From the IMG/VR virus record IMGVR_UViG_2703718840_000009, positions 1-13,805 of that record: a stretch of DNA of 13,805 bases. One strand, given 5' to 3'. Origin of the DNA: a virus (Duplodnaviria; Heunggongvirae; Uroviricota; Caudoviricetes). Positions 1 through 13,805 of the stretch are shown piece by piece (within the stretch, counting starts at the first letter, position 1; every line of letters begins with the position of its first letter). Made by a program: the position numbers and the translations under genes. The notes under the pieces are model-generated. The model saw nothing but the letters and a program-made list of their open reading frames with translations, was not told where the DNA came from and ran no database searches.

Positions 1-585
1 CTATTCGATAATGGGTCCTGTTGGCCATTCAATATCCGGTGCAGTTGATGTATCAACACGGTTCAGCAACACCCGATACTTCTTCCAGGCTTCCAGCAAC
101 GAGTTTTCTTCCTCCGTTGCGATCTCCAGATCCACAGCATCCTGAAGCGGCGCTATATGCTCACTGGCTACCTGCATCAGGCTGTTTTTTGTTTCTTCCG
201 CCTCCCGGATCCGGAACAGTTTTTCTGCTTCCGTATCCTTCACCCAGGCTGTGCCGTTCCACTTCTGATATTCCCCTCCCGGCGACAACCAGGTAACATT
301 TTCCGGTAACGGACCGAGTTCAGAAATAAATAACGCGTCGCCGGAAGCCACGTCATAAACCGTTTTACCCCGATGGTCTTCAACGAGATGCCACGATGCC
401 TCATCACTGTTGAAAACGGCCACAAAGCCAGCAGGAATATCTGGCGGTGCAATATAGGTACTGTTTGCTGGCAGACCTGTATGAGGCGGAATATATGCAT
501 CACCTTCACCAATAAATTCATTAGTTCCGGCCAGCAGATTATAAATTTTTATGGTCCGTGGTTGTTCACTCATTCTGAATGCCAT
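1..585 (-). CDS. tfa: Tail fibre assembly protein Tfa
   Basis: 194-aa ORF ([24 protein letters not shown]...) matches lambda Tfa from memory. Stop codon is at 1-3; start overlaps the stf stop (ATGA). Confidence 0.9.
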
Positions 586-1481
586 TATGCAAGCCTCACA
601 ATATAGTTAAATGCGATGTTTTTGACGGTGTTTTCCGCGTTACCAGCAGCGTTAACGGTGATGGTGTGTCCATGTGAACCAATCGCAACCGAGTGCGTAT
701 GCGCACCAATACCGACAGTATGTGCGTGTGCACCTGCGCTTGCAGCAGTACCCGATACAGAGTGCGTATGAGCGCCTGCAGAAGAAGTGTTAACACTGTA
801 TTTAGAATAATCAGGTGATCCACTTCCCGGAGCACCACTGGAACCACCTGAAACAAATGTCATCGAATGGGTATGTGCACCGGCTGAAGCAGCCGTACCG
901 CTAACACTATGGGTATGCGCACCAGTGTTATTCGTGGATTTAGTGCCGTAATCAAACGACGATGTGGTTTTCGTCCCCAAATCCGTACTGGATACGCTGG
1001 CGCTGTGGGTGTGTGATTTAATGCCGTCCTGTTCCTGAGACAATACGGCTCGATCACTGGCGGGCTTGCCCTTAATCGTCCAGCCACGCATATCAGGGAT
1101 CACGCCTGACGGATAAGCGGCTGCAAGTTTCGGGTAAGCAGATTTGTCAAAAGTCTGCCCCTGCATCAGGGCATAACCAGACGGAACGGTATCTGATGGC
1201 CACGGGATTGGTGCACCGACTGGATAAAACTCTGCAGGAGGATGAGCCGAGGTGTAAAGCTGCGCCCACGGCGACCAGTTTGCGTCGGTCGTATCCCGTC
1301 GTGAACGAATAAATGCCGGAGCATGAGCACCGCTTGTACCACTCCAGCCGATGAGTAACTCACCTTCGCCAACGGCTGTCATCCCTTTCAGGTGAATGAT
1401 ATTTCCATACGCTGTTGGATATCCGTTGTTATACACCTCGTATAACTCAAGACCTGTTGCCCCCTGCGTATTGTCTGTCAA
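585..1481 (-). pseudogene. stf: Side tail fibre protein Stf, C-terminal fragment (~298 codons) truncated at a deletion junction
   Basis: His-rich GAHTHS repeats typical of the lambda Stf C-terminus. The frame stays open upstream into terminase A sequence with no native start; the ORF track start is a TTG. Confidence 0.8.
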
Positions 1482-1657
1482 CGCGGTTGAAAGGGCAGTG
1501 TTTCCCAGCGCCCTTCCTGGTATGCGGATTCTTTCGGGAGATAGTAATTAGCATCCGCCCATTCAACGGCGGTCTGTGGCTCCGGCCTGAACAGTGAGCG
1601 AAGCCCGGCGCGGACAAAATGCCGCAGCCTGTTAACCTGACTGTTCGATATATTCAC
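1478..1657 (-). pseudogene. A: Terminase large subunit A, N-terminal ~57-codon remnant ending at the deletion junction
   Basis: Reverse complement reads [59 protein letters not shown], then departs from lambda A and hits TGA. Start overlaps the nu1 end as in lambda. Confidence 0.75.
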
Positions 1658-2177
1658 TCAGCAACCCCGGTATCAGTTCATCCAGCGCGGCTGCTTTGTT
1701 CATGGCTTTGATAATATCCCGTTTCAGGAAATCAACATGTCGGTTTTCCAGTTCCGGAAAACGCCGCTGCACCGACAGGGGGAGCCCGTCGAGAATACTG
1801 GCAATTTCACCTGCGATCCGCGACAACACGAAAGTACAGAATGCGGTTTCCACCACTTCAGCGGAGTCTCTGGCATTCTTCAGTTCCTGTGCGTCGGCCT
1901 GCGCACGCGTAAGTCGATGGCGTTCGTACTCAATAGTTCCTGGCTGGAGATCTGCCTCGCTGGCCTGCCGCAGTTCTTCAACCTCCCGGCGCAGCTTTTC
2001 GTTCTCAATTTCAGCATCCCTTTCGGCATACCATTTTATGACGGCGGCAGAGTCATAAAGCACCTCATTACCCTTGCCACCGCCTCGCAGAACGGGCATT
2101 CCCTGTTCCTGCCAGTTCTGAATGGTACGGATACTCGCACCGAAAATGTCAGCCAGCTGCTTTTTGTTGACTTCCAT
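1632..2177 (-). CDS. nu1: Terminase small subunit Nu1
   Basis: 181-aa ORF (MEVNKKQLADIFGASIRTIQNWQEQGMPVLRGGGKGNEVLYDSAAV...) matches lambda Nu1 from memory, with an N-terminal HTH. Confidence 0.92.
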   Translation of the reverse strand: MEVNKKQLADIFGASIRTIQNWQEQGMPVLRGGGKGNEVLYDSAAVIKWYAERDAEIENEKLRREVEELRQASEADLQPGTIEYERHRLTRAQADAQELKNARDSAEVVETAFCTFVLSRIAGEIASILDGLPLSVQRRFPELENRHVDFLKRDIIKAMNKAAALDELIPGLLSEYIEQSG

Positions 2178-2189
2178 TGTTCATTCCAC

Positions 2190-2400
2190 GGACAAAAACA
2201 GAGAAAGGAAACGACAGAGGCCAAAAAGCTCGCTTTCAGCACCTGTCGTTTCCTTTCTTTTCAGAGGGTATTTTAAATAAAAACATTAAGTTATGACGAA
2301 GAAGAACGGAAACGCCTTAAACCGGAAATTTTTCATAAATAGCGAAAACCCGCGAGGTCGCCGCCCCGTAACCTGTCGGATCACCGGAAAGGACCCGTAA
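2190..2400 (-). other. cos: Annealed cos site (cosB-cosN-cosQ); 12-nt cohesive-end sequence at about 2355-2366
   Basis: Plus strand 2341-2366 (agcgaaaacccgcgaggtcgccgccc) is the reverse complement of the lambda left end GGGCGGCGACCTCGCGGGTTTTCGCT. It is followed directly by cgtaacctgtcgg, the reverse complement of the lambda right end. Confidence 0.85.
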
Positions 2401-2565
2401 AGTGATAATGATTATCATCTACATATCACAACGTGCGTGGAGGCCATCAAACCACGTCAAATAATCAATTATGACGCAGGTATCGTATTAATTGATCTGC
2501 ATCAACTTAACGTAAAAACAACTTCAGACAATACAAATCAGCGACACTGAATACGGGGCAACCTC

Positions 2566-2760
2566 ATGTCAACGAAGAACAGAACCCGCAGAACAACAAC
2601 CCGCAACATCCGCTTTCCTAACCAAATGATTGAACAAATTAACATCGCTCTTGAGCAAAAAGGGTCCGGGAATTTCTCAGCCTGGGTCATTGAAGCCTGC
2701 CGTCGGAGACTAACGTCAGAAAAGAGAGCATATACATCAATTAAAAGTGATGAAGAATGA
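2566..2760 (+). CDS. Hypothetical small protein with a possible ribbon-helix-helix (Arc/CopG-like) fold
   Basis: 64-aa ORF starting in right-end lambda sequence (catgaggttgccccg). Basic N-terminus then a strand-helix-helix pattern (RNIRFPNQMIEQINIALEQKGSGNFSAWVIEACRRRL). No convincing RBS seen. Confidence 0.35.
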   Translation: MSTKNRTRRTTTRNIRFPNQMIEQINIALEQKGSGNFSAWVIEACRRRLTSEKRAYTSIKSDEE

Positions 2761-2924
2761 ACATCCCGCGTTCTTCCCTCCGAACAGGACGATATTGTAA
2801 ATTCACTTAATTACGAGGGCATTGCAGTAATTGAGTTGCAGTTTTACCACTTTCCTGACAGTGACAGACTGCGTGTTGGCTCTGTCACAGACTAAATAGT
2901 TTGAATGATTAGCAGTTATGGTGA

Positions 2925-3131
2925 TCAGTCAACCACCAGGGAATAATCCTTCATATTATTATCGTGCTTCACCAACGCTGCCTCAATTGCTCTGAATGCT
3001 TCCAGAGACACCTTATGTTCTATACATGCAATTACAACATCAGGGTAACTCATAGAAATGGTGCTATTAAGCATATTTTTTACACGAATCAGATCCACGG
3101 AGGGATCATCAGCAGATTGTTCTTTATTCAT
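2925..3131 (-). CDS. Hypothetical 68-aa protein of the lambda right arm
   Basis: ORF in a visibly AT-rich block at the position of a small ORF I recall near the lambda right end. Confidence 0.5.
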
Positions 3132-3293
3132 TTTGTCGCTCCATGCGCTTGCTCTTCATCTAGCGGTTAAAATATTACTTCAAATCTTTCTGTATGAAGA
3201 TTTGAGCACGTTGGCCTTACATACATCTGTCGGTTGTATTTCCCTCCAGAATGCCAGCAGGACCGCACTTTGTTAAGCAACCAATACTATTAA

Positions 3294-3827
3294 GTGAAAA
3301 CATTCCTAATATTTGACATAAATCATCAACAAAACACAAGGAGGTCAGACCAGATTGAAACGATAAAAACGATAATGCAAACTACGCGCCCTCGTATCAC
3401 ATGGAAGGTTTTACCAATGGCTCAGGTTGCCATTTTTAAAGAAATATTCGATCAAGTGCGAAAAGATTTAGACTGTGAATTGTTTTATTCTGAACTAAAA
3501 CGTCACAACGTCTCACATTATATTTACTATCTAGCCACAGATAATATTCACATCGTGTTAGAAAACGATAACACCGTGTTAATAAAAGGACTTAAAAAGG
3601 TTGTAAATGTTAAATTCTCAAGAAACACGCATCTTATAGAAACGTCCTATGATAGGTTGAAATCAAGAGAAATCACATTTCAGCAATACAGGGAAAATCT
3701 TGCTAAAGCAGGAGTTTTCCGATGGGTTACAAATATCCATGAACATAAAAGATATTACTATACCTTTGATAATTCATTACTATTTACTGAGAGCATTCAG
3801 AACACTACACAAATCTTTCCACGCTAA
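3294..3827 (+). CDS. Hypothetical 177-aa protein of the lambda right arm (true start may be an internal Met)
   Basis: Long ORF in the AT-rich block between cos and bor; an aggaggt RBS-like motif lies inside the 5' end, suggesting a later start. Confidence 0.5.
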
Positions 3828-4116
3828 ATCATAACGTCCGGTTTCTTCCGTGTCAGCACCGGGGCGTTGGCATAATGCAATACGTGTACGCGCTAAACCC
3901 TGTGTGCATCGTTTTAATTATTCCCGGACACTCCCGCAGAGAAGTTCCCCGTCAGGGCTGTGGACATAGTTAATCCGGGAATACAATGACGATTCATCGC
4001 ACCTGACATACATTAATAAATATTAACAATATGAAATTTCAACTCATTGTTTAGGGTTTGTTTAATTTTCTACACATACGATTCTGCGAACTTCAAAAAG
4101 CATCGGGAATAACACC

Positions 4117-4410
4117 ATGAAAAAAATGCTACTCGCTACTGCGCTGGCCCTGCTTATTACAGGATGTGCTCAACAGACGTTTACTGTTCAAAACAAACCG
4201 GCAGCAGTAGCACCAAAGGAAACCATCACCCATCATTTCTTCGTTTCTGGAATTGGGCAGAAGAAAACTGTCGATGCAGCCAAAATTTGTGGCGGCGCAG
4301 AAAATGTTGTTAAAACAGAAACCCAGCAAACATTCGTAAATGGATTGCTCGGTTTTATTACTTTAGGCATTTATACTCCGCTGGAAGCGCGTGTGTATTG
4401 CTCACAATAA
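4117..4410 (+). CDS. bor: Bor lipoprotein (serum-resistance, Iss-like)
   Basis: 97-aa ORF with signal peptide and lipobox (MKKMLLATALALLITGCAQQ), matching lambda Bor from memory. Opposite orientation to the lysis genes, as in lambda. Confidence 0.9.
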   Translation: MKKMLLATALALLITGCAQQTFTVQNKPAAVAPKETITHHFFVSGIGQKKTVDAAKICGGAENVVKTETQQTFVNGLLGFITLGIYTPLEARVYCSQ

Positions 4411-4441
4411 TTGCATGAGTTGCCCATCGATATGGGCAACT

Positions 4442-4903
4442 CTATCTGCACTGCTCATTAATATACTTCTGGGTTCCTTCCAGTTGTTTTTGCATAGTGA
4501 TCAGCCTCTCTCTGAGGGTGAAATAATCCCGTTCAGCGGTGTCTGCCAGTCGGGGGGAGGCTGCATTATCCACGCCGGAGGCGGTGGTGGCTTCACGCAC
4601 TGACTGACAGACTGCTTTGATGTGCAACCGACGACGACCAGCGGCAACATCATCACGCAGAGCATCATTTTCAGCTTTAGCATCAGCTAACTCCTTCGTG
4701 TATTTTGCATCGAGCGCAGCAACATCACGCTGACGCATCTGCATGTCAGTAATTGCCGCGTTCGCCAGCTTCAGTTCTCTGGCATTTTTGTCGCGCTGGG
4801 CTTTGTAGGTAATGGCGTTATCACGGTAATGATTAACAGCCCATGACAGGCAGACGATGATGCAGATAACCAGAGCGGAGATAATCGCGGTGACTCTGCT
4901 CAT
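4442..4903 (-). CDS. Rz: Spanin inner-membrane subunit Rz
   Basis: 153-aa ORF with N-terminal TM segment and coiled-coil body; matches lambda Rz from memory. Confidence 0.9.
4501..4683 (-). CDS. Rz1: Spanin outer-membrane lipoprotein Rz1, nested in the +1 frame of Rz
   Basis: 60-aa ORF inside Rz with lipobox (VVVGCTS) and a proline-rich stretch ([15 protein letters not shown]). Confidence 0.85.
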
Positions 4904-5376
4904 ACATCAATCTCTCTGACCGTTCCGCCCGCTTCTTTGAATTTTGCAATCAGGCTGTCAGCCTTATGCTCGAACTGACCATAACCAGCGCCCGGCAGTG
5001 AAGCCCAGATATTGCTGCAACGGTCGATTGCCTGACGGATATCACCACGATCAATCATAGGTAAAGCGCCACGCTCCTTAATCTGCTGCAATGCCACAGC
5101 GTCCTGACTTTTCGGAGAGAAGTCTTTCAGGCCAAGCTGCTTGCGGTAGGCATCCCACCAACGGGAAAGAAGCTGGTAGCGTCCGGCGCCTGTTGATTTG
5201 AGTTTTGGGTTTAGCGTGACAAGTTTGCGAGGGTGATCGGAGTAATCAGTGAATAGCTCTCCGCCTACAATGACGTCATAACCATGATTTCTGGTTTTCT
5301 GACGTCCGTTATCAGTTCCCTCCGACCACGCCAGCATATCGAGGAACGCCTTACGTTGATTATTGATTTCTACCAT
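4900..5376 (-). CDS. R: Endolysin R (lytic transglycosylase)
   Basis: 158-aa ORF ([35 protein letters not shown]...) matches lambda R from memory; overlaps the Rz start. Confidence 0.95.
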
Positions 5377-5683
5377 CTTCTACTCCGGCTTTTTTAGCAG
5401 CGAAGCGTTTGATAAGCGAACCAATCGAGTCAGTACCGATGTAGCCGATAAACACGCTCGTTATATAAGCGAGATTGCTACTTAGTCCGGCGAAGTCGAG
5501 AAGGTCACGAATGAACCAGGCGATAATGGCGCACATCGTTGCGTCGATTACTGTTTTTGTAAACGCACCGCCATTATATCTGCCGCGAAGGTACGCCATT
5601 GCAAACGCAAGGATTGCCCCGATGCCTTGTTCCTTTGCCGCGAGAATGGCGGCCAACAGGTCATGTTTTTCTGGCATCTTCAT
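5360..5683 (-). CDS. S: Holin/antiholin S (S107/S105 dual start)
   Basis: 107-aa ORF beginning [32 protein letters not shown] with the Met1-Lys2-Met3 dual-start motif and three TM segments. Confidence 0.95.
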
Positions 5684-6088
5684 GTCTTACCCCCAATAAG
5701 GGGATTTGCTCTATTTAATTAGGAATAAGGTCGATTACTGATAGAACAAATCCAGGCTACTGTGTTTAGTAATCAGATTTGTTCGTGACCGATATGCACG
5801 GGCAAAACGGCAGGAGGTTGTTAGCGCGACCTCCTGCCACCCGCTTTCACGAAGGTCATGTGTAAAAGGCCGCAGCGTAACTATTACTAATGAATTCAGG
5901 ACAGACAGTGGCTACGGCTCAGTTTGGGTTGTGCTGTTGCTGGGCGGCGATGACGCCTGTACGCATTTGGTGATCCGGTTCTGCTTCCGGTATTCGCTTA
6001 ATTCAGCACAACGGAAAGAGCACTGGCTAACCAGGCTCGCCGACTCTTCACGATTATCGACTCAATGCTCTTACCTGTTGTGCAGATA

Positions 6089-6145
6089 TAAAAAATCCCG
6101 AAACCGTTATGCAGGCTCTAACTATTACCTGCGAACTGTTTCGGG
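6089..6145 (-). terminator. tR' intrinsic terminator of the 6S transcript
   Basis: On the minus strand, cccgaaac ... gtttcggg stem followed by a U-run (reverse complement of plus-strand 6089-6145). Confidence 0.7.
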
Positions 6146-6282
6146 ATTGCATTTTGCAGACCTCTCTGCCTGCGATGGTTGGAGTTCCAGACGATACGTC
6201 GAAGTGACCAACTAGGCGGAATCGGTAGTAAGCGCCGCCTCTTTTCATCTCACTACCACAACGAGCGAATTAACCCATCGTT
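6089..6282 (-). ncRNA. Lambda 6S RNA (short pR' transcript terminated at tR')
   Basis: Interval between the inferred pR' start and tR'; the sequence matches the lambda pR'-tR' region from memory. The TSS position is approximate. Confidence 0.55.
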
Positions 6283-6320
6283 GAGTCAAATTTACCCAAT
6301 TTTATTCAATAAGTCAATAT
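6283..6320 (-). promoter_or_regulatory. Late promoter pR' with overlapping qut site
   Basis: Minus strand reads TTGACT (-35), 17-nt spacer, TAAATT (-10), as in lambda (ttgacttattgaataaaattgggtaaatttgactcaacgatgg). Confidence 0.65.
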
Positions 6321-6359
6321 CATGCCGTTAATATGTTACCATCCGTGGCAATCATGCTG

Positions 6360-6752
6360 CTAACGTGTGACCGCATTCAAAATGTTGTCTGCGATTGACT
6401 CTTCTTTGTGGCATTGCACCACCAGAGCGTCATACAGCGGCTTAACAGTGCGTGACCAGGTGGGTTGGGTAAGGTTTGGGATTAGCATCGTCACAGCGCG
6501 ATATGCTGCGCTTGCTGGCATCCTTGAATAGCCGACGCCTTTGCATCTTCCGCACTCTTTCTCGACAACTCTCCCCCACAGCTCTGTTTTGGCAATATCA
6601 ACCGCACGGCCTGTACCATGGCAATCTCTGCATCTTGCCCCCGGCGTCGCGGCACTACGGCAATAATCCGCATAAGCGAATGTTGCGAGCACTTGCAGTA
6701 CCTTTGCCTTAGTATTTCCTTCAAGCTTTGCCACACCACGGTATTTCCCCGA
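6360..6752 (-). pseudogene. Q: Antiterminator Q, C-terminal fragment only (~130 codons)
   Basis: C-terminus (SGKYRGVAKLEGNTKAKVLQ ... HKEESIADNILNAVTR) matches lambda Q. The ORF-track extension to 7019 is antisense to bet/exo, so the Q N-terminus is absent. Confidence 0.8.
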
Positions 6753-6948
6753 TAACGATGAAACCATGCAGGAGATTAACACTCTGCTGATCGCCCTGGA
6801 TAAAACATGGGATGACGACTTATTGCCGCTCTGTTCCCAGATATTTCGCCGCGACATTCGTGCATCGTCAGAACTGACACAGGCCGAAGCAGTGAAAGCT
6901 CTTGGATTCCTGAAACAAAAAGCCACTGAGCAGAAGGTGGCAGCATGA
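6748..6948 (+). pseudogene. bet: Bet single-strand annealing protein, C-terminal ~66-codon remnant
   Basis: Reads (PD)[64 protein letters not shown], the lambda Bet C-terminus; stop overlaps the exo start (ATGA). Confidence 0.8.
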
Positions 6949-7625
6949 CACCGGACATTATCCTGCAGCGTACCGGGATCGACGTGAGAGCTGTCGAACA
7001 GGGGGATGATGCATGGCACAAATTACGGCTCGGCGTCATCACCGCTTCAGAAGTTCACAACGTGATAGCAAAGCCCCGCTCAGGAAAGAAGTGGCCTGAC
7101 ATGAAAATGTCCTACTTCCACACCCTGCTTGCCGAGGTTTGCACCGGTGTGGCTCCGGAAGTTAACGCTAAAGCACTGGCCTGGGGAAAACAGTACGAGA
7201 ACGACGCCAGAACCCTGTTTGAGTTCACTTCCGGCGTGAATGTTATTGAATCCCCGATCATCTATCGCGACGAAAGTATGCGTACCGCCTGCTCTCCCGA
7301 TGGTTTATGCAGTGACGGCAATGGCCTTGAGCTGAAATGCCCGTTTACCTCCCGGGATTTCATGAAGTTCCGGCTCGGTGGTTTCGAGGCCATAAAATCG
7401 GCTTACATGGCCCAGGTGCAGTACAGCATGTGGGTGACACGAAAAGATGCCTGGTACTTTGCCAACTATGACCCACGTATGAAGCGTGAAGGACTGCATT
7501 ATGTCGTGGTTGAGCGGGATGAAAAGTACATGGCGAGTTTTGACGAGATGGTGCCGGAGTTCATCGAAAAAATGGACGAGGCACTGGCTGAAATTGGTTT
7601 TGTATTTGGGGAGCAATGGCGATGA
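6945..7625 (+). CDS. exo: Lambda exonuclease (Red alpha)
   Basis: 226-aa ORF ([40 protein letters not shown]...) matches lambda Exo from memory. Confidence 0.95.
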
Positions 7626-7804
7626 AGCATCCTCACGATAATATCCGGGTAGGTGCGATCACTTTCGTCTACTCCGTTACAAAGCGAGGCTGGGTATTTC
7701 CCGGCCTTTCTGTTATCAGAAATCCCCTGAAAGCACAGCGGCTGGCTGAGGAGATAAATAATAAACGGGGAGCTGTATGCACAAAGCATCTCCCGTTGAG
7801 TTAA
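7616..7804 (+). CDS. Small hypothetical protein (lambda orf60a-like); start may be the ATG at 7622
   Basis: Small ORF immediately after exo, overlapping its stop, as in the lambda pL operon. Confidence 0.6.
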
Positions 7805-7968
7805 GAACGAGTATCGAGATGGCACATAGCCTCGCTCAAATTGGAGTCAGGTTTGTGCCAATACCAGTAGAAACAGACGAAGAATTTCATACGTTAGCCG
7901 CATCCCTTTCACAAAAGCTGGAAATGATGGTGGCGAAAGCAGAAGCAGATGAGAGAGACCAGGTATGA
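7777..7968 (+). CDS. Small hypothetical protein (lambda orf63-like)
   Basis: 63-aa ORF overlapping the neighbouring ORFs, in the same order as lambda. Confidence 0.6.
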   Translation: MHKASPVELRTSIEMAHSLAQIGVRFVPIPVETDEEFHTLAASLSQKLEMMVAKAEADERDQV

Positions 7969-8044
7969 CAACCACTGAATGTATTTTTCTGGCAGCGGGC
8001 TTCATATTCTGTGTGCTTATGCTTGCCGACATGGGGCTTGTTCA

Positions 8045-8260
8045 ATGACACCTCAGCAAGAAAACGCCCTTCGCAGCATTGCCCGTCAGGCTAATTCTGA
8101 AATCAAAAAAGCCAGACAGCAGTTTCCGGATAAAAACGTCGATGACATTTGCCGTAGCGTACTGAAGAAGCACCGCGAAACGGTAACGCTGATGGGATTC
8201 ACACCGACTCATTTAAGCCTGGCAATCGGCATGTTAAACGGCGTCTTTAAGGAACGATGA
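8045..8260 (+). CDS. Small hypothetical protein (lambda orf61-region); ORF track extends it upstream to 7979
   Basis: Internal ATG at 8045 gives MTPQQENALRSIARQANSEIKKARQQFPDKNVDD...; no recognisable domain. Confidence 0.45.
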   Translation: MTPQQENALRSIARQANSEIKKARQQFPDKNVDDICRSVLKKHRETVTLMGFTPTHLSLAIGMLNGVFKER

Positions 8261-8358
8261 ACATGAAAAGCAAAATTATCAGGGAGCTACAGGCTCCTTT
8301 TTTATTGCTCGCATTTACCCCCAAGCGTATTAACCAACAATTCAGGGATTAATGGAAG

Positions 8359-8580
8359 ATGGCAGACATCATTGATTCAGCATCAGAAATTGAAGAATTA
8401 CAGCGCAACACAGCAATAAAAATGCGCCGCCTGAACCACCAGGCTGTATCTGCCACTCATTGTTGTGAGTGTGGCGATCCCATAGATGAGCTAAGACGCC
8501 TGGCCGTTCAGGGTTGTCGGACTTGTGCAAGTTGCCAGGAAGATCTGGAGCTTATCAGTAAACAGAGAGGTTCGAAGTGA
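8359..8580 (+). CDS. TraR/DksA-family C4 zinc-finger protein (lambda Orf73-like)
   Basis: 73-aa ORF with CxxC-(17)-CxxC (HCCECGDPIDELRRLAVQGCRTCASC), resembling F-plasmid TraR. Stop overlaps the next ORF start (GTGA). Confidence 0.8.
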   Translation: MADIIDSASEIEELQRNTAIKMRRLNHQAVSATHCCECGDPIDELRRLAVQGCRTCASCQEDLELISKQRGSK

Positions 8581-8990
8581 GCGTAATTCACTCTCAGGCA
8601 CTGCGTGAAGCGGCAGAGCAGGCAATGCCTGACAACTGGGGATTTGACGCGGACCTTTTCCATGAGCTGGTAACACCATCGATTGTGCTGACACTGCTGG
8701 ATGAACGGGAAAGAAACCAGCAATACATCAAACGCCGCGACCAGGAGAACGAGGATATTGCGCTAACGGTGGGGAAACTGCGTGTTGAGCTGGAGACAGC
8801 AAAAATCAAAACTCAACGAGCAGCGTGAGTAGAAGGTGTTATCTCGGATGGAAGTAAGCGTATTGCTGAACTGGAGGCCTGGGTTGAATACACAAGAGCT
8901 GCATACGTAAGAGCAAAAGACAAGGGAGATTTGATCAGAGTTATTACCCGCCAACCAACGGGATTTTACGCTTACGTACCATGTAATTAG
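8577..8990 (+). pseudogene. ea22: ea22-like ORF interrupted by an in-frame TGA at 8826-8828 (83 codons, stop, then 53 open codons)
   Basis: N-terminus MSVIHSQALREAAEQAMPDNWGFDADLFHELVTPSIVL resembles lambda Ea22 (from memory, uncertain). After the TGA the same frame reads VEGVISDGSKRIAELEAWVEYTRAAYVRAKDKGDLIRVITRQPTGFYAYVPCN to TAG at 8988-8990. Confidence 0.5.
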
Positions 8991-9126
8991 GAATCCTTGA
9001 AGTGGCAGCCTAACTGCGGATACACTGAAATGGCGATTTGGTAACATGTTTCGCACAAGGCTGTTACTACACTTAGAGATAATCAGCCATGATTAAACGC
9101 TTTGTAAAAAGTAAAAGGAAATTACA

Positions 9127-9741
9127 ATGAAAAAATCAATACTAATTTTAGGGCTTACGTTAATTGTCTCATCTCAAATACCATCGGCAATGGCAAAAAA
9201 TGAATCAAAACTATGGGTTGTTGTTGATCGAACGGAAAGACATACCTGCCCTTCAAGTAAATGTGGAGTGGCTGGGAAACTATTTTTCAGGGAAGGCGTA
9301 GATTTTCTAGAAAAAAAAGGTGAATGGGTTCGTATAACTGAGCCATATTCAGCCTCATGTGTTGGAGGGGAAAGCGAATATATTAAAGAAGGTAATAAAT
9401 CCTGCACAAGAAAAAATGGAATCGTTAATGGCAAGTTTTCAGAATGGGTTAAACTTAGTGATCTTAGCAGTGAAAGGCCATCAGATCCTGCTGAAAATGC
9501 GAGCGGAGATGATACTTTAATCAAAGGATCTGATGACTACCGTATATACAAAAAAGAGTTTTCTTCGGCAGCTAGGAAGTTAATAAATGAAGGGGTCTGC
9601 ACGGAAAGCGATTTTAAGGAAATCGGAGGGTGGATGGCATCAAGCAATAAGGGTGAAAACATCTATTTCACATATTGCGGAGGAATGACGTTGTCGAACA
9701 GAATATATCTAGACGTTAAAAGTGGAAAGACTTTTAGATAA
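9127..9741 (+). CDS. Hypothetical secreted protein with a possible bacterial SH3-like N-terminal domain (non-lambda)
   Basis: 204-aa ORF with RBS aagga ~8 nt upstream and a signal peptide (MKKSILILGLTLIVSSQIPSAMA). Visibly AT-rich, several Cys, followed by a terminator hairpin. Confidence 0.8.
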   Translation: MKKSILILGLTLIVSSQIPSAMAKNESKLWVVVDRTERHTCPSSKCGVAGKLFFREGVDFLEKKGEWVRITEPYSASCVGGESEYIKEGNKSCTRKNGIVNGKFSEWVKLSDLSSERPSDPAENASGDDTLIKGSDDYRIYKKEFSSAARKLINEGVCTESDFKEIGGWMASSNKGENIYFTYCGGMTLSNRIYLDVKSGKTFR

Positions 9742-9812
9742 TATGATATTACCAATGACAGCATTAATTTAATGCCTCCATAGAATTATCTCCAGGAAGT
9801 AAGTATAAGAAA

Positions 9813-9850
9813 AGCCCGCACAATGAGCTGCTGCGGGCTTTGTGTTATTC
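9813..9850 (+). terminator. Putative intrinsic terminator after the secreted-protein gene
   Basis: Stem agcccgca / tgcgggct with ~11-nt loop, followed by a T-rich tract (ttgtgttatt). Confidence 0.55.
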
Positions 9851-10034
9851 GCCATATTTTATGAAGCAAATACGACACTATAGATAATTAAGCGTTACTG
9901 GTTGTCGATTCCTCACTCATTCCTGCTGATGGCTGTCTTCTTGTATGTGCCATTGAAGGGTAATATCGCGTAAAAAGATACCGGAAGTATCCGCGCCGCC
10001 ATGATTGTCTTTCTCCTGATGCAGGAAAAGCAGA

Positions 10035-10373
10035 ATGACTAGATCAGCAGCAGAGCGCAAAGCCGATCAGAGAGCCAAGCAAGCATCATCCGGTATGCGT
10101 AAGCTGGAGCTTGTACTTGATGCTCAGGAAATTGAAATGCTGGAGCGTAACTGAGCCACGCGCCGCTTCAGGCGTGCGCCTTACGAGTTTGGTGAGTACA
10201 TAGCATTACTGAGCCGCCAGGATGATGCACGTGTGCGCTGGCGTATAAAATCGATTAGCAGAAAACGTTGCCGTAAGTGCGGCGAGAGAGTTCCTGTTAA
10301 TTCATGCCCGTGTAATGGTGACTCACAATACTGGGTGACCAAAGGCTGGCACGAAACAAAATTAATGATATAA
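10035..10373 (+). pseudogene. Zinc-ribbon small ORF (possible Ea8.5 counterpart) split by an in-frame TGA at 10152-10154
   Basis: ATG at 10035 with RBS aggaaaag gives 39 aa (MTRSAAERKADQRAKQASSGMRKLELVLDAQEIEMLERN). After the TGA the same frame stays open to TAA at 10371-10373 and contains CRKCGERVPVNSCPC; a GTG at 10233 could restart it. Confidence 0.4.
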
Positions 10374-10401
10374 ATCTCTGTGACATGTCACGGAGGCGGC
10401 A

Positions 10402-10830
10402 ATGAAATTAGACCAGCAATATCTAAAAGATCTACTTATCGCATTCGAAAAAACTTATGGCCCTGACACGATGCTTAGTGAACTAGAGGATAATGGCTTT
10501 AATAGATATGACCAAAATTTTATTTTCCATATGCGATTATTATGTGACTACGAATTAATAGTTAGGGTTGATGGAAAACCAGGGTTCGGTCATATAATGT
10601 CCAACGAGTTAGGGGAAGGTGTTGAATATAGTTGGATCGAAGTACCACTGAGGTTGACAGCAAGAGGGCATGATTTTATTGCTGACTTACGTCAAAAGGA
10701 GGTCTGGCAAGCTATAAAAACAAACTTTAAGGATGAGGGAATTAGTACTCTTATGAGTGTTTCAAAATCACTAGCAAAAGTCTTTGCAAGGAAAAAAATA
10801 AAAGATATTACAGGAATAGATATTGAATAA
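10402..10830 (+). CDS. Hypothetical 142-aa protein, no signal peptide (non-lambda)
   Basis: Strong RBS ggagg 5 nt upstream; visibly AT-rich; preceded by a 12-bp palindrome and followed by a terminator hairpin at about 10877-10900. Confidence 0.75.
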   Translation: MKLDQQYLKDLLIAFEKTYGPDTMLSELEDNGFNRYDQNFIFHMRLLCDYELIVRVDGKPGFGHIMSNELGEGVEYSWIEVPLRLTARGHDFIADLRQKEVWQAIKTNFKDEGISTLMSVSKSLAKVFARKKIKDITGIDIE

Positions 10831-10876
10831 TTCTTAGCATCAAGCAACTACTGCCTTTGGTGAAAATTATATCTGA

Positions 10877-10900
10877 ACTCGCTACGGCGAGTTTTGTTTT
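10877..10900 (+). terminator. Putative intrinsic terminator after the 142-aa gene
   Basis: 6-bp stem actcgc / gcgagt with loop tacg, followed by tttgtttt. Confidence 0.55.
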
Positions 10901-10913
10901 ACGGAGATGATAA

Positions 10914-11081
10914 ATGCACTTCAGAGTCACTGGTGAATGGAATGGAGAACCATTCAACAGAGTTATCTAAGCAGAGAACATCAATGACTGCTATGACAAC
11001 TGGATGATATGGGCGCAGATAGCACATGCAGACATAACCAATATTCGAATTGAAGAACTGAAAGAACACCAAGCCGCCTGA
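10914..11081 (+). pseudogene. Small ORF upstream of xis (lambda orf55-position) interrupted by an in-frame TAA at 10968-10970
   Basis: Reads MHFRVTGEWNGEPFNRVI, TAA, then AENINDCYDNWMIWAQIAHADITNIRIEELKEHQAA to TGA at 11079-11081. The 168-nt span fits the 55-codon lambda ORF I recall at this position. Confidence 0.4.
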
Positions 11082-11120
11082 TGGCGGTTTTTTCTTGCGT
11101 GTAATTGCGGAGACTTTGCG

Positions 11121-11339
11121 ATGTACTTGACACTTCAGGAGTGGAACGCTCGCCAGCGACGCCCAAGAAGCCTTGAAACAGTTCGTCGATGGGTGCGCGA
11201 ATGCAGGATATTCCCTCCTCCGGTTAAGGATGGAAGAGAGTATCTGTTCCACGAATCAGCGGTAAAGGTTGACTTAAATCGACCAGTAACAGGTAGCCTT
11301 TTGAAGAGGATCAGAAATGGGAAGAAGGCGAAGTCATGA
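11121..11339 (+). CDS. xis: Excisionase Xis
   Basis: 72-aa ORF (MYLTLQEWNARQRRPRSLETVRRWVRECRIFPPPVKDGREYLFHESAVKVDLN...) matches lambda Xis; 3' end overlaps int. Confidence 0.95.
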   Translation: MYLTLQEWNARQRRPRSLETVRRWVRECRIFPPPVKDGREYLFHESAVKVDLNRPVTGSLLKRIRNGKKAKS

Positions 11340-12387
11340 GCGCCGGGATTTACCCCCTAACCTTTATATAAGAAACAATGGATATTACTGCTACAGGGAC
11401 CCAAGGACGGGTAAAGAGTTTGGATTAGGCAGAGACAGGCGAATCGCAATCACTGAAGCTATACAGGCCAACATTGAGTTATTTTCAGGACACAAACACA
11501 AGCCTCTGACAGCGAGAATCAACAGTGATAATTCCGTTACGTTACATTCATGGCTTGATCGCTACGAAAAAATCCTGGCCAGCAGAGGAATCAAGCAGAA
11601 GACACTCATAAATTACATGAGCAAAATTAAAGCAATAAGGAGGGGTCTGCCTGATGCTCCACTTGAAGACATCACCACAAAAGAAATTGCGGCAATGCTC
11701 AATGGATACATAGACGAGGGCAAGGCGGCGTCAGCCAAGTTAATCAGATCAACACTGAGCGATGCATTCCGAGAGGCAATAGCTGAAGGCCATATAACAA
11801 CAAACCCTGTCGCTGCCACTCGCGCAGCAAAATCAGAGGTAAGGAGATCAAGACTTACGGCTGACGAATACCTGAAAATTTATCAAGCAGCAGAATCATC
11901 ACCATGTTGGCTCAGACTTGCAATGGAACTGGCTGTTGTTACCGGGCAACGAGTTGGTGATTTATGCGAAATGAAGTGGTCTGATATCGTAGATGGATAT
12001 CTTTATGTCGAGCAAAGCAAAACAGGCGTAAAAATTGCCATCCCAACAGCATTGCATGTTGATGCTCTCGGAATATCAATGAAGGAAACACTTGATAAAT
12101 GCAAAGAGATTCTTGGCGGAGAAACCATAATTGCATCTACTCGTCGCGAACCGCTTTCATCCGGCACAGTATCAAGGTATTTTATGCGCGCACGAAAAGC
12201 ATCAGGTCTTTCCTTCGAAGGGGATCCGCCTACCTTTCACGAGTTGCGCAGTTTGTCTGCAAGACTCTATGAGAAGCAGATAAGCGATAAGTTTGCTCAA
12301 CATCTTCTCGGGCATAAGTCGGACACCATGGCATCACAGTATCGTGATGACAGAGGCAGGGAGTGGGACAAAATTGAAATCAAATAA
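11317..12387 (+). CDS. int: Integrase Int (tyrosine recombinase)
   Basis: 356-aa ORF (MGRRRSHERRDLPPNLYIRNNGYYCYRDPRTGKEFGLGRDRRIAITEAIQ...) matches lambda Int over its full length. Confidence 0.97.
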   Translation: MGRRRSHERRDLPPNLYIRNNGYYCYRDPRTGKEFGLGRDRRIAITEAIQANIELFSGHKHKPLTARINSDNSVTLHSWLDRYEKILASRGIKQKTLINYMSKIKAIRRGLPDAPLEDITTKEIAAMLNGYIDEGKAASAKLIRSTLSDAFREAIAEGHITTNPVAATRAAKSEVRRSRLTADEYLKIYQAAESSPCWLRLAMELAVVTGQRVGDLCEMKWSDIVDGYLYVEQSKTGVKIAIPTALHVDALGISMKETLDKCKEILGGETIIASTRREPLSSGTVSRYFMRARKASGLSFEGDPPTFHELRSLSARLYEKQISDKFAQHLLGHKSDTMASQYRDDRGREWDKIEIK

Positions 12388-12483
12388 TGATTTTATTTTG
12401 ACTGATAGTGACCTGTTCGTTGCAACAAATTGATAAGCAATGCTTTTTTATAATGCCAACTTAGTATAAAAAAGCAGGCTTCA
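12388..12483. other. attL: attL junction: phage P' arm with Int arm-type sites, 15-bp core (about 12461-12475), then bacterial arm
   Basis: Reverse complement reads tgaagcct-GCTTTTTTATACTAA-gttggcattataaaaaagcattgcttatcaatttgttgcaacgaacaggtcactatcagtcaaaataaaatca: bacterial-side sequence, lambda core, then lambda P' arm. Confidence 0.88.
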
Positions 12484-12521
12484 ACGGATTCATTTTTCTA
12501 TTTCATAGCCCGGAGCAACCT

Positions 12522-13805
12522 GTGAACACATTTTCAGTTTCCCGTCTGGCGCTGGCATTGGCTTTTGGCGTGACGCTGACCGCCTGTAGCTCAACCCCGC
12601 CCGATCAACGTCCTTCTGATCAAACCGCGCCTGGTACCTCTTCTCGCCCGATTCTGTCGGCAAAAGAAGCGCAGAATTTCGATGCTCAACACTATTTTGC
12701 ATCCCTGACACCAGGTGCTGCAGCGTGGAATCCTTCCCCGATTACCCTGCCTGCGCAACCTGACTTTGTTGTCGGCCCGGCGGGCACTCAAGGTGTAACG
12801 CATACCACGATTCAGGCGGCGGTAGATGCGGCAATTATCAAGCGTACCAACAAGCGCCAGTATATTGCCGTGATGCCTGGTGAGTATCAGGGAACGGTAT
12901 ATGTCCCTGCCGCTCCGGGTGGAATTACTCTGTACGGTACAGGTGAAAAACCGATTGATGTGAAGATTGGGCTTTCCCTTGATGGTGGCATGAGCCCTGC
13001 CGACTGGCGTCACGACGTCAACCCGCGCGGCAAATATATGCCAGGTAAACCAGCGTGGTATATGTACGATAGCTGCCAGAGCAAACGCAGCGACAGTATC
13101 GGTGTTCTCTGCTCTGCGGTCTTCTGGTCACAAAACAATGGCCTGCAACTGCAAAATCTGACCATCGAAAACACGCTGGGCGATAGCGTAGATGCAGGTA
13201 ACCATCCGGCGGTGGCACTGCGTACTGATGGTGACCAGGTACAGATTAACAACGTTAACATTCTCGGTCGTCAGAACACCTTCTTTGTCACCAACAGCGG
13301 TGTGCAGAACCGTCTGGAAACGAATCGTCAGCCGCGTACGCTGGTGACCAACAGCTACATTGAAGGGGATGTGGATATCGTTTCTGGTCGCGGCGCAGTG
13401 GTGTTCGATAACACCGAATTCCGCGTGGTGAACTCACGTACTCAGCAAGAAGCGTATGTGTTTGCACCGGCTACGCTGTCCAACATTTACTACGGTTTCC
13501 TCGCCGTAAACAGCCGTTTCAATGCTTTCGGTGATGGTGTGGCGCAACTGGGCCGCTCGCTGGATGTTGATGCCAATACCAACGGTCAGGTGGTGATCCG
13601 TGATAGCGCCATCAACGAAGGTTTTAACACGGCTAAACCGTGGGCCGATGCGGTGATCTCTAATCGTCCGTTTGCGGGTAATACCGGCAGCGTAGATGAT
13701 AACGACGAAATACAGCGCAATCTGAATGACACTAACTACAACCGCATGTGGGAATACAATAACCGCGGCGTGGGTAGTAAAGTGGTTGCAGAGGCGAAGA
13801 AGTAA
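12522..13805 (+). CDS. ybhC: Host outer-membrane lipoprotein YbhC (pectinesterase-family / acyl-CoA thioesterase)
   Basis: 427-aa ORF with GTG start, signal peptide and lipobox (LTAC); recognised as E. coli YbhC, the gene beside the lambda attachment site. Visibly higher GC than the prophage accessory regions. Confidence 0.88.
   Translation: MNTFSVSRLALALAFGVTLTACSSTPPDQRPSDQTAPGTSSRPILSAKEAQNFDAQHYFASLTPGAAAWNPSPITLPAQPDFVVGPAGTQGVTHTTIQAAVDAAIIKRTNKRQYIAVMPGEYQGTVYVPAAPGGITLYGTGEKPIDVKIGLSLDGGMSPADWRHDVNPRGKYMPGKPAWYMYDSCQSKRSDSIGVLCSAVFWSQNNGLQLQNLTIENTLGDSVDAGNHPAVALRTDGDQVQINNVNILGRQNTFFVTNSGVQNRLETNRQPRTLVTNSYIEGDVDIVSGRGAVVFDNTEFRVVNSRTQQEAYVFAPATLSNIYYGFLAVNSRFNAFGDGVAQLGRSLDVDANTNGQVVIRDSAINEGFNTAKPWADAVISNRPFAGNTGSVDDNDEIQRNLNDTNYNRMWEYNNRGVGSKVVAEAKK

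Follow-up and report, generated by a model that had tools for sequence, protein, structure and literature searches.

Recurrence of one deletion endpoint in the side-tail-fibre gene stf, seen from a defective lambda-family prophage

In a lambda-family prophage remnant of Escherichia coli, the large terminase gene A runs after 170 nucleotides (nt) directly into the distal part of the side-tail-fibre gene stf. This arrangement raises the question of whether the join is a single accident of prophage decay or whether the position at which stf is entered has been used repeatedly. The sequence analysed, referred to as the window, comprises 13,805 nt (record IMGVR_UViG_2703718840_000009 of IMG/VR, positions 1 to 13,805; Caudoviricetes). 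BLAST searches against lambda [GenBank:J02459] and complete E. coli genomes identified it as a remnant of about 14 kb at att-lambda, adjoining the chromosomal gene ybhC. The junction is an inherited deletion scar in a defective prophage, a product of ordinary prophage decay, and its stf endpoint is a nucleotide-exact deletion hot spot that is apparently undescribed. It is highly probable that scar and hot spot are both real.

The junction between A and stf

The genes around the junction are all read from the minus strand and are arranged as follows (a prime denotes an incomplete gene, a slash within a sequence or a gene pair the break).

1 to 585, minus strand: tfa, tail-fibre assembly, intact, 194 codons (open reading frame; Pfam Caudo_TAP, E=9e-44; 94% nucleotide identity to lambda 21824-22535)
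585 to 1487, minus strand: stf', the last 300 codons of the side-tail-fibre gene, no native start (translation; Pfam Collar, Phage_fiber)
1487 to 1488, no strand: deletion junction A'/stf' (break of lambda collinearity; 1-nt microhomology)
1478 to 1657, minus strand: A', remnant of the large terminase gene with GTG start (lambda-derived portion 1488 to 1657; lambda identity)
1632 to 2177, minus strand: nu1, small terminase subunit, equivalent to nohA/nohD, intact, 181 codons (Pfam Phage_Nu1, E=2.5e-100 over the full length; 99.5% identity to lambda)

A sequence-only reading of the window had placed a deletion junction at 1470-1500 and proposed an alignment to lambda to find breakpoint and microhomology. 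In this alignment, collinearity with an intact phage is lost, the break lying between 1487 and 1488. Base 1488 corresponds to lambda nt 880 and is the last lambda-identical base. In gene sense, i.e. on the minus strand, the junction reads ...CTGCCCTTTCA/ACCGCGTTGACAGAC (in shorter form ...CCCTTTCA/ACCGCGTTG, in longer form ...GAAACACTGCCCTTTCA/ACCGCGTTGACAGACAATACG), and native stf reads ...GGTCGGGTA/ACCGCG at this position. A single A, at 1488, is common to both parents. Since this base can be assigned to either of them, microhomology and breakpoint ambiguity both amount to 1 nt. The minus strand thus leads from lambda nu1 through 170 nt of A (window 1488-2177, lambda 880..191) directly into stf' and then into intact tfa. 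The block from lambda nt 881 to about codon 707 of stf (lambda 881 to ~20,970, ~21 kb) is absent, as had been predicted for the genes from A through most of stf.

The A' open reading frame (1657-1478, 59 codons) starts with the expected GTG and specifies 57 residues identical to gpA, the length that had been anticipated; codon 57 is changed from CAG to CAA, still encoding Gln. It then ends with Pro-Arg-TGA, so that two extra sense codons precede the stop, not three as had been claimed. In the 59-residue product no Pfam match is left. Functional gpA has an ATPase and a nuclease domain in ~641 residues, of which 57 native residues remain. The tail-fibre frame starts at 1487 and differs from that of A'. 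A TTG at 1481-1479, sharing bases with the A' stop (TTGA), is the earliest start codon available in it, and the longest open reading frame covers 585-1481; a fragment out of frame and devoid of its native start had also been proposed. While the switch into the C-terminus of stf was recognised correctly, the first 270 nt are not lambda's own allele: window 1218-1487 has no nucleotide match to lambda, yet translates in frame as tail-fibre sequence. These 270 nt belong to a C-terminal module of another type, present in ~1400 E. coli genomes, and stf' is 98.4% identical to the 3' end of full-length stf genes of ~1024 codons. Pfam detects Collar (E=1.6e-12) and Phage_fiber in stf', i.e. a receptor-binding C-terminus, followed by the intact Caudo_TAP gene. 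The N-terminal tail-attachment domain and the shaft are missing together with ~707 upstream codons of the full-length relatives. His-rich repeats of the GAHTHS type at 777-873 constitute the sole stretch of stf' that does not align with the allele of S3/Qin.

Expression of stf' appears unlikely, since the antiterminator gene Q is truncated, the frames of A' and stf' differ, and neither a promoter-like signal nor a Shine-Dalgarno sequence was seen; in window 1-2600, no terminator-like signal stands out either. The earlier statement that the fragment is probably not expressed was therefore reasonable, but it has to be qualified by the overlap of the A' stop with a TTG in the stf' frame and by stf' (300 codons) and tfa (194 codons) being still open. 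The scar alone shows that the prophage is dead, as DNA packaging and particle building are impossible.

Comparison with related prophages at the same site, also suggested by the sequence-only reading, revealed either the identical junction or other deletions. PSJ-12, a complete genome, matches window 1-757 and 1442-2400 at 100% identity, A'/stf' junction included, and 23CRST024 gives a junction-spanning match of 99.1% identity (junction match only). At the same ybhB-ybhC site, EC416 carries a nu1 700/lom' deletion and NCTC9087 an A 1759/stf deletion of the same block. An in-frame deletion of exactly 684 bp (228 codons; window 758-1441) has shortened stf' in PSJ-12; its junction, ..CCCGATA/ACTCAAG, lies between CCCGATA and CTCGTATA, again at TA. 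An assembly artefact, by collapse or chimeric joining, could be suspected from the window's exact configuration, junction plus full 900-nt stf', being found in none of 5,426 complete E. coli genomes. The matching genomes, however, differ from it only by the further in-frame 684-bp deletion, and the junction in PSJ-12 is fully identical on both sides, which makes an assembly collapse unlikely. Moreover, overlaps of 1-2 nt are not joined by assemblers, and analogous junctions occur in finished genomes including that of K-12 MG1655. Taken together, an artefact is extremely improbable.

Recurrence of the stf endpoint

Other prophages were searched for the stf endpoint in two scans. The first used the 29-mer directly right of the site on genome and metagenome contigs; the scan of the genome contigs yielded two E. 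coli records only and added little. For the second, on viral contigs, a 32-mer starting 15 nt right of the site was chosen so that junctions near the site were also visible. As an unbiased check, an anchor 240 nt downstream of the site was used, covering an interval of 270 nt. The source assemblies are of uneven quality, and the class counts given below are minima and not frequencies.

At least 16 distinct non-native left flanks were detected, and all of them abut TA/ followed by A or G and CCGCGCTGACAGAC, directly 3' of GGTCGGGTA. These junctions are designated type 1 and have the following left partners (lambda coordinates where available).

Terminase genes: nu1 697; nu1/A 719 (K-12 Qin); A 880 (window); A 955
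Head and tail genes: gpB 3911; gpE 6321; gpE 6988; Z 8064; the V-G interval; L 13979; I 15277
Beyond the tail genes: 19588, three bases beyond the lom stop
Non-lambda partners: portal-like, prohead protease/scaffold-like and tape-measure-like genes (from translations only)
Remaining partner: one further gene

All nine classes tested (L037, L046, L063, L083, L107, L123, L130, L131, L139) continue into stf' and tfa downstream. Wherever upstream lambda homology exists they are collinear deletions, with no insertion or inversion. A second type of stf, known from EC416 and NCTC9087, has only GGTCGGGTA in common with type 1, and its right side, CCTTCTGCC..., i.e. CCTTCTGCCCGTAAGG, is unrelated. A scan for this right side revealed at least 19 further left-flank classes, all at the same position. 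As the same GGTCGGGTA is followed by unrelated sequence in type 2, the determinant is the 9-nt motif and not the sequence retained.

Of the 35 classes listed, 33 have TA as the last dinucleotide of the left flank and two have CA, the window being one of these two; in lambda nt 200-21000, TA makes up 2.9% of dinucleotides. Compared to 597 background TA sites, the left flanks are non-random for both type 1 (Mann-Whitney, p=2e-5) and type 2 (p=2e-4). For the 12 nt preceding TA, the similarity in type 2 is to the native left flank (p=2e-4). In type 1, the reverse complement of the retained side is the better match (p=2e-5), ahead of the native flank (p=0.07). A common left consensus is roughly (G/C)CGG(G/T)TA immediately before the break, and a G-rich tract precedes TA in nearly all classes. 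The window-specific T in ACCGCGTTG was considered as a relic of gene Z (lambda TTAACCGCGTTG), but no Z-class relative is close to the window and this reading is unsupported.

With the anchor 240 nt downstream, at least 13 loci (at least 11 classes by our own count) were found to break at the site. The other breaks in the 270-nt interval were mostly confined to single loci, except for one flank in six loci and one in two; they are read as probable mosaic boundaries. The endpoint is also polar, as 135 of 136 loci anchored on the native left flank retain the native right side. In the sole exception (L300, 9145-9200), native left GGTCGGGTA/ continues within the middle part of tfa (CAACAGGAGCC...), whose native sequence is ..GCTTCGATA/CAGCAGG. 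TA is present in both partners, and this is the only event of the reciprocal type found. Left endpoints are found throughout the 20 kb and do not become rarer with distance, and the deletions at the site, many of them independent, all extend upstream into morphogenesis genes. Off the site, A 955 is joined in 65COLEC to a position 146 nt further upstream in stf. The S3 junction, with A 955 at the site, shows 8 nt of microhomology with native stf (GTCGGTTA vs GTCGGGTA).

Two side observations concern the fragments themselves. The length of stf' differs among loci, being 300, 301, 304, 316 or 317 codons, and in-frame fusions were seen of Nu1 (L046), a portal protein (L017) and a tape-measure protein (L030) to Stf'.

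In the literature on stfQ/nohA, the motif and prophage deletion hot spots, no description of the site was encountered; as older phage papers are mostly not covered, this silence is weak evidence of novelty. If one exact stf site recurs in the inactivation of E. coli prophages, the layout of Qin and of many other 'noh-stf-tfa' remnants would have a mechanistic origin and each junction class would be a clean, homoplasy-free marker of prophage lineages. A recombination or nicking activity, or an unusually strong template-switch site, would be testable by mutating the 9-nt motif.

Explanations for the shared endpoint

From the exactness of the endpoint and the bias of its partners we infer that breakage and joining at the site are sequence-directed and not random. 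In the window, one illegitimate-recombination event removed ~21 kb, comprising the rest of A, all head and tail genes, lom and ~707 stf codons, and joined lambda A nt 880 to the fixed stf position. The favoured cause would be an activity for strand transfer or nicking, or else a template switch of high site specificity, with ...CGGGTA/ and weaker look-alikes as its targets, and the 3' end of a look-alike site would be joined to the DNA directly downstream of the true site. One exact endpoint, look-alike partner sites and polarity, the pattern of deletions anchored at a nick site (HUH/Rep-type), were all found. It is tentatively suggested that GGTCGGGTA/ in lambdoid stf genes is the target of an undescribed sequence-directed breakage-and-joining activity of phage, host or plasmid, and that Qin-type remnants are its products. 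Any specific or enzyme-based mechanism for the hot spot is possible rather than probable, and a strongly site-preferring, microhomology-mediated template switch is a serious alternative. If such an activity exists, prophages would repeatedly lose their head and tail genes but keep tfa and the receptor-binding end of stf, and remnants of Qin architecture, the window included, would arise by a specific process instead of random decay. Because the receptor-binding part of the fibre and its chaperone are always preserved, the pattern bears on prophage 'domestication'.

Several observations weigh against this reading. No candidate enzyme is consistently encoded near the site, where tfa alleles and downstream genes vary between loci, although an enzyme supplied in trans by host or plasmid is possible. 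Significant DNA secondary structure was not detected on either strand of either stf type (z -0.4 to -1.4). The window itself, with a left flank ending in CA and 1 nt of microhomology, is one of the two atypical members. Long microhomology in some classes, 8 nt for A 955, 11 nt for Z 8064 and 6-7 nt for three type-2 classes, is also expected from enzyme-free microhomology-mediated joining. In principle, the classes of a single prophage lineage might also have arisen by successive, nested deletions and not as independent events, and the loci, drawn from assemblies of uneven quality, provide minimum counts.

Four more specific arrangements were rejected. A mobile cassette with two fixed ends was considered on account of a direct repeat, GT(C/A)GGGTAA, at the tfaQ stop; a constant boundary on the right is lacking, however, because the tfa allele and the DNA beyond it vary from locus to locus. 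Recombination between two copies of the site was also considered, but no other copy exists in either orientation. Guidance by a hairpin or quasi-palindrome would fit the reverse-complement likeness of type 1 (p=2e-5), but not type 2 (p=0.55), and folding energies are unremarkable. Pseudo-cos cleavage by terminase was prompted by AGGTCG and GTAACC being common with cos; upon inspection, spacing and nick position did not fit and type 2 had no match.

The junction of the window could also be secondary, a Qin/S3-type A 955/stf deletion having been followed by loss of 75 nt of A (lambda 881-955). The S3 and window types have an identical stf endpoint and differ on the A side only, and 8 nt of microhomology in the former (GTCGGTTA vs GTCGGGTA) are opposed to 1 nt in the latter. 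A second deletion, however, would need to stop exactly at the old junction with no guiding repeat, and the determinant common to both stf types, the native left motif, is lost after the first deletion. The endpoint also serves at least 14 other left partners located well outside A; independent use of the hot spot is therefore the simpler reading, and a two-step origin is improbable. An even lower probability is assigned to a crossover or quasi-site of a tail-fibre invertase of the Pin/Gin/Cin/Hin family, e.g. pinQ, which adjoins tfaQ in K-12 and S3. Quasi-sites of Cin have their central dinucleotide in common, which would fit the invariant TA. Furthermore, in PMC3945230, which cites Sandmeier 1994, stf exchanges among unrelated phages are ascribed to stf-associated invertases. 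Yet no match to pix/hix/gix with up to 7 mismatches in 26 positions was present in Qin and native loci, in a search that recovered the control sites of e14, and a search with AAACCNNGGTTT did not find the consensus. Crossover sites of the Din family, 26 bp with the core AAACC-NN-GGTTT in inverted pairs, were thus not detected, nor was an inverted copy nearby. The position equivalent to pix of e14 is ~250 nt downstream, just before PIPWPSD, PSJ-12, as the representative of the window's lineage, has no annotated pin gene between ybhB and ybhC, and the right half-site is wholly different between the two stf types. Inversion products were not seen and reciprocal products are nearly absent.

Recombination or replication slippage mediated by microhomology in the absence of any enzyme, with selection or sampling producing the apparent hot spot, has more in its favour but is still rather unlikely. 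Every junction shows microhomology of 1-11 nt, and similar junctions are present in the same prophages (TA at Q'/bet', CAGTTA at ninF'/N', TACCG in NCTC9087). Such a process hardly accounts for at least 35 classes at one nucleotide as opposed to one class in total in the 15 nt to the right and the 30-40 nt to the left, for most classes having just the 2-nt TA, or for left endpoints spread over 20 kb. The existence of out-of-frame classes (window, S3) argues against selection for a particular fusion protein. An insertion sequence (IS) formerly at the site, promoting an adjacent deletion or excised with loss of one flank, appears very improbable. One fixed endpoint, one variable endpoint and short microhomology, as observed here, are the classical signature of IS-mediated deletion, and excision of an IS with loss of one flank has reportedly been seen for IEE with IS629. 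In addition, two abutting deletions in Q, 1 nt apart in the window and PSJ-12, would be explicable by a former IS. At the stf site, however, ~290 loci are all free of an IS, 135 of 136 loci anchored on the left keep the native right side, and contig ends are not in excess there, contrary to what draft assemblies broken by an IS would show.

The remainder of the remnant and known systems

Beyond nu1, the window is composed of lambda segments, a short non-lambda part and the chromosomal border (matches by BLAST to lambda J02459). Window 23-1217 corresponds to lambda tfa and the stf C-terminus (94% and 86% identity), 1488-2366 to lambda 880..1 (99.5%), 2367-6754 to lambda 48502..44115 (99.9%), 6753-8875 to lambda 32220..30094 (96.6%; bet 3' end, exo and left-operon genes), and 10866-12475 to lambda 29333..27724 (98.7%), ending at the att core. 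The additional features are:

2355 to 2366, minus strand: cosN cohesive-end sequence (lambda 12..1 abutting 48502)
Up to 6754 (lambda 44115): lambda right end with bor, Rz, R, S and the 3' two-thirds of Q (BLAST, 99.9%)
6360 to 6754, minus strand: Q', the C-terminal 131 codons of antiterminator Q (lambda 44115-44509; Pfam Antiterm)
6753 to 6754, no strand: second deletion junction, Q'/bet' (lambda 44115 joined to 32220, TA microhomology)
8875 to 10866: ~2 kb of non-lambda genes (no nucleotide match to lambda)
11317 to 12475, plus strand: int, 356 codons, ending at the attP/attL core, lambda 27724 (open reading frame, BLAST)
12522 to 13805: chromosomal ybhC, open reading frame of 427 codons (annotated ybhC in matching genomes)

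The lambda-type int/xis region ending at the att core beside ybhC identifies integration at att-lambda. As is normal for a prophage, the lambda ends are joined at cos (window 2366/2367, where lambda 1 abuts 48502), and cos is flanked by nu1 and by the lysis cassette, in which Rz, R and S are 99.9% identical to lambda. An inducible phage is no longer present, because lambda 881 to ~20,970 and 32221-44114 are absent. In relatives, window 8875-10866 is annotated as hypothetical, DUF2513 and ead/Ea22-like genes, some with internal stops.

At the second junction (context 6725-6785), Q' at lambda 44115 is joined to bet' at lambda 32220 in the arrangement ..TTTCCCCGATA/ACGATGAAACC. This deletion takes out N, the immunity region, O, P, the nin region and the 5' third of Q and thereby additionally removes immunity and replication functions. 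A chimeric open reading frame of 219 codons results on the minus strand (6360-7019), in which 88 N-terminal codons antisense to bet/exo are in frame with 131 Q codons; Pfam Antiterm covers residues 125-211. PSJ-12 retains lambda 44116-42328 and 35266-32221, both missing from the window, lacks lambda 46024-44117, which the window retains, and bears an insertion of the IS5 family. PSJ-12 and the window derive from one ancestor and have been eroded differently. The Q-side endpoint of the independent PSJ-12 deletion 46024-44117 (L005, 8353-8357) is 1 nt from that of the window, with the opposite side kept; an insertion formerly at this site is one possibility to account for the coincidence. The Q site (lambda 44115) was rejected as a second general hot spot, since among ~120 viral loci only PSJ-12 deviates. 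PSJ-12, the nearest relative of the window's element, also has a diguanylate-cyclase gene (L005, 1587-2927) between tfa and the right att-lambda junction near ybhB. The gene is possibly prophage cargo; the window begins at the tfa stop codon.

The closest known arrangement is that of Qin in K-12 (nohA - stfQ - tfaQ - pinQ), which has the same gene order of nu1 homologue, truncated stf and tfa. Its stf endpoint is identical to the nucleotide (TA/ACCGCG...), and the C-terminal modules are 96-97% identical. K-12 Qin, S3 Qin and the window thus join lambda 719, 955 and 880 to one identical stf nucleotide. In K-12 the left endpoint, nt 719, is three codons into A and in frame, in contrast to nt 880 and an out-of-frame join in the window; the in-frame fusion (Val-Asn-Ile followed by Stf', from the start codon of A) accounts for the annotated stfQ. 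With the junction 9 nt into A (L008, 4799-5368 and 3886-4848), nohA reads into 8 extra codons. Qin occupies another chromosomal site and carries pinQ, whereas the window is located at att-lambda with lambda int/xis and a lambda-identical late region. DLP12 of K-12 (nohD - aaaD - tfaD) likewise combines an intact nu1 homologue with a downstream N-terminal fragment of A that runs into DNA of the tail-fibre region, and its right-arm genes ylcI, ybcW, ybcV and bor are those of the window. However, A nt 1018 is joined there inside tfa with TAT microhomology, off the stf hot spot. A pix-like sequence, TTGAACCTTGGTTTTAAC, in the ybcY/tfaX region of DLP12 (L009, ~5195) suggests a relic of an invertible tail-fibre segment.

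Two groups of recombination systems produce comparable patterns. Deletions anchored at nick sites of rolling-circle replication were reportedly described by Michel and Ehrlich for M13 and pC194. In these, and when relaxases or Rep proteins terminate at pseudo-sites, one endpoint is exact to the nucleotide, the others lie at sequences resembling the bases just 5' of the cleavage site, polarity is strong, and with recognition upstream of the break any downstream sequence can be retained. The likeness of the stf endpoint is in pattern only: one nucleotide-exact endpoint, look-alike others, polarity and recognition upstream of the break. It differs in that no HUH/Rep gene, origin or hairpin is associated with the stf site, and no enzyme of this type is known from lambdoid phages. 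Quasi-site recombination by Cin, Gin and Pin (Sandmeier 1994, as cited in PMC3945230) also concerns tail-fibre genes, a fixed site and look-alikes with a common central dinucleotide, and can fuse or delete gene segments. The difference lies in the missing crossover consensus and in a position that is not the constant/variable boundary of e14. By analogy, the pattern would most resemble nick-site deletions of rolling-circle replication or recombinase quasi-sites. The window is a further remnant of the Qin/DLP12 kind, and its stf endpoint is a precise, recurrent deletion hot spot.

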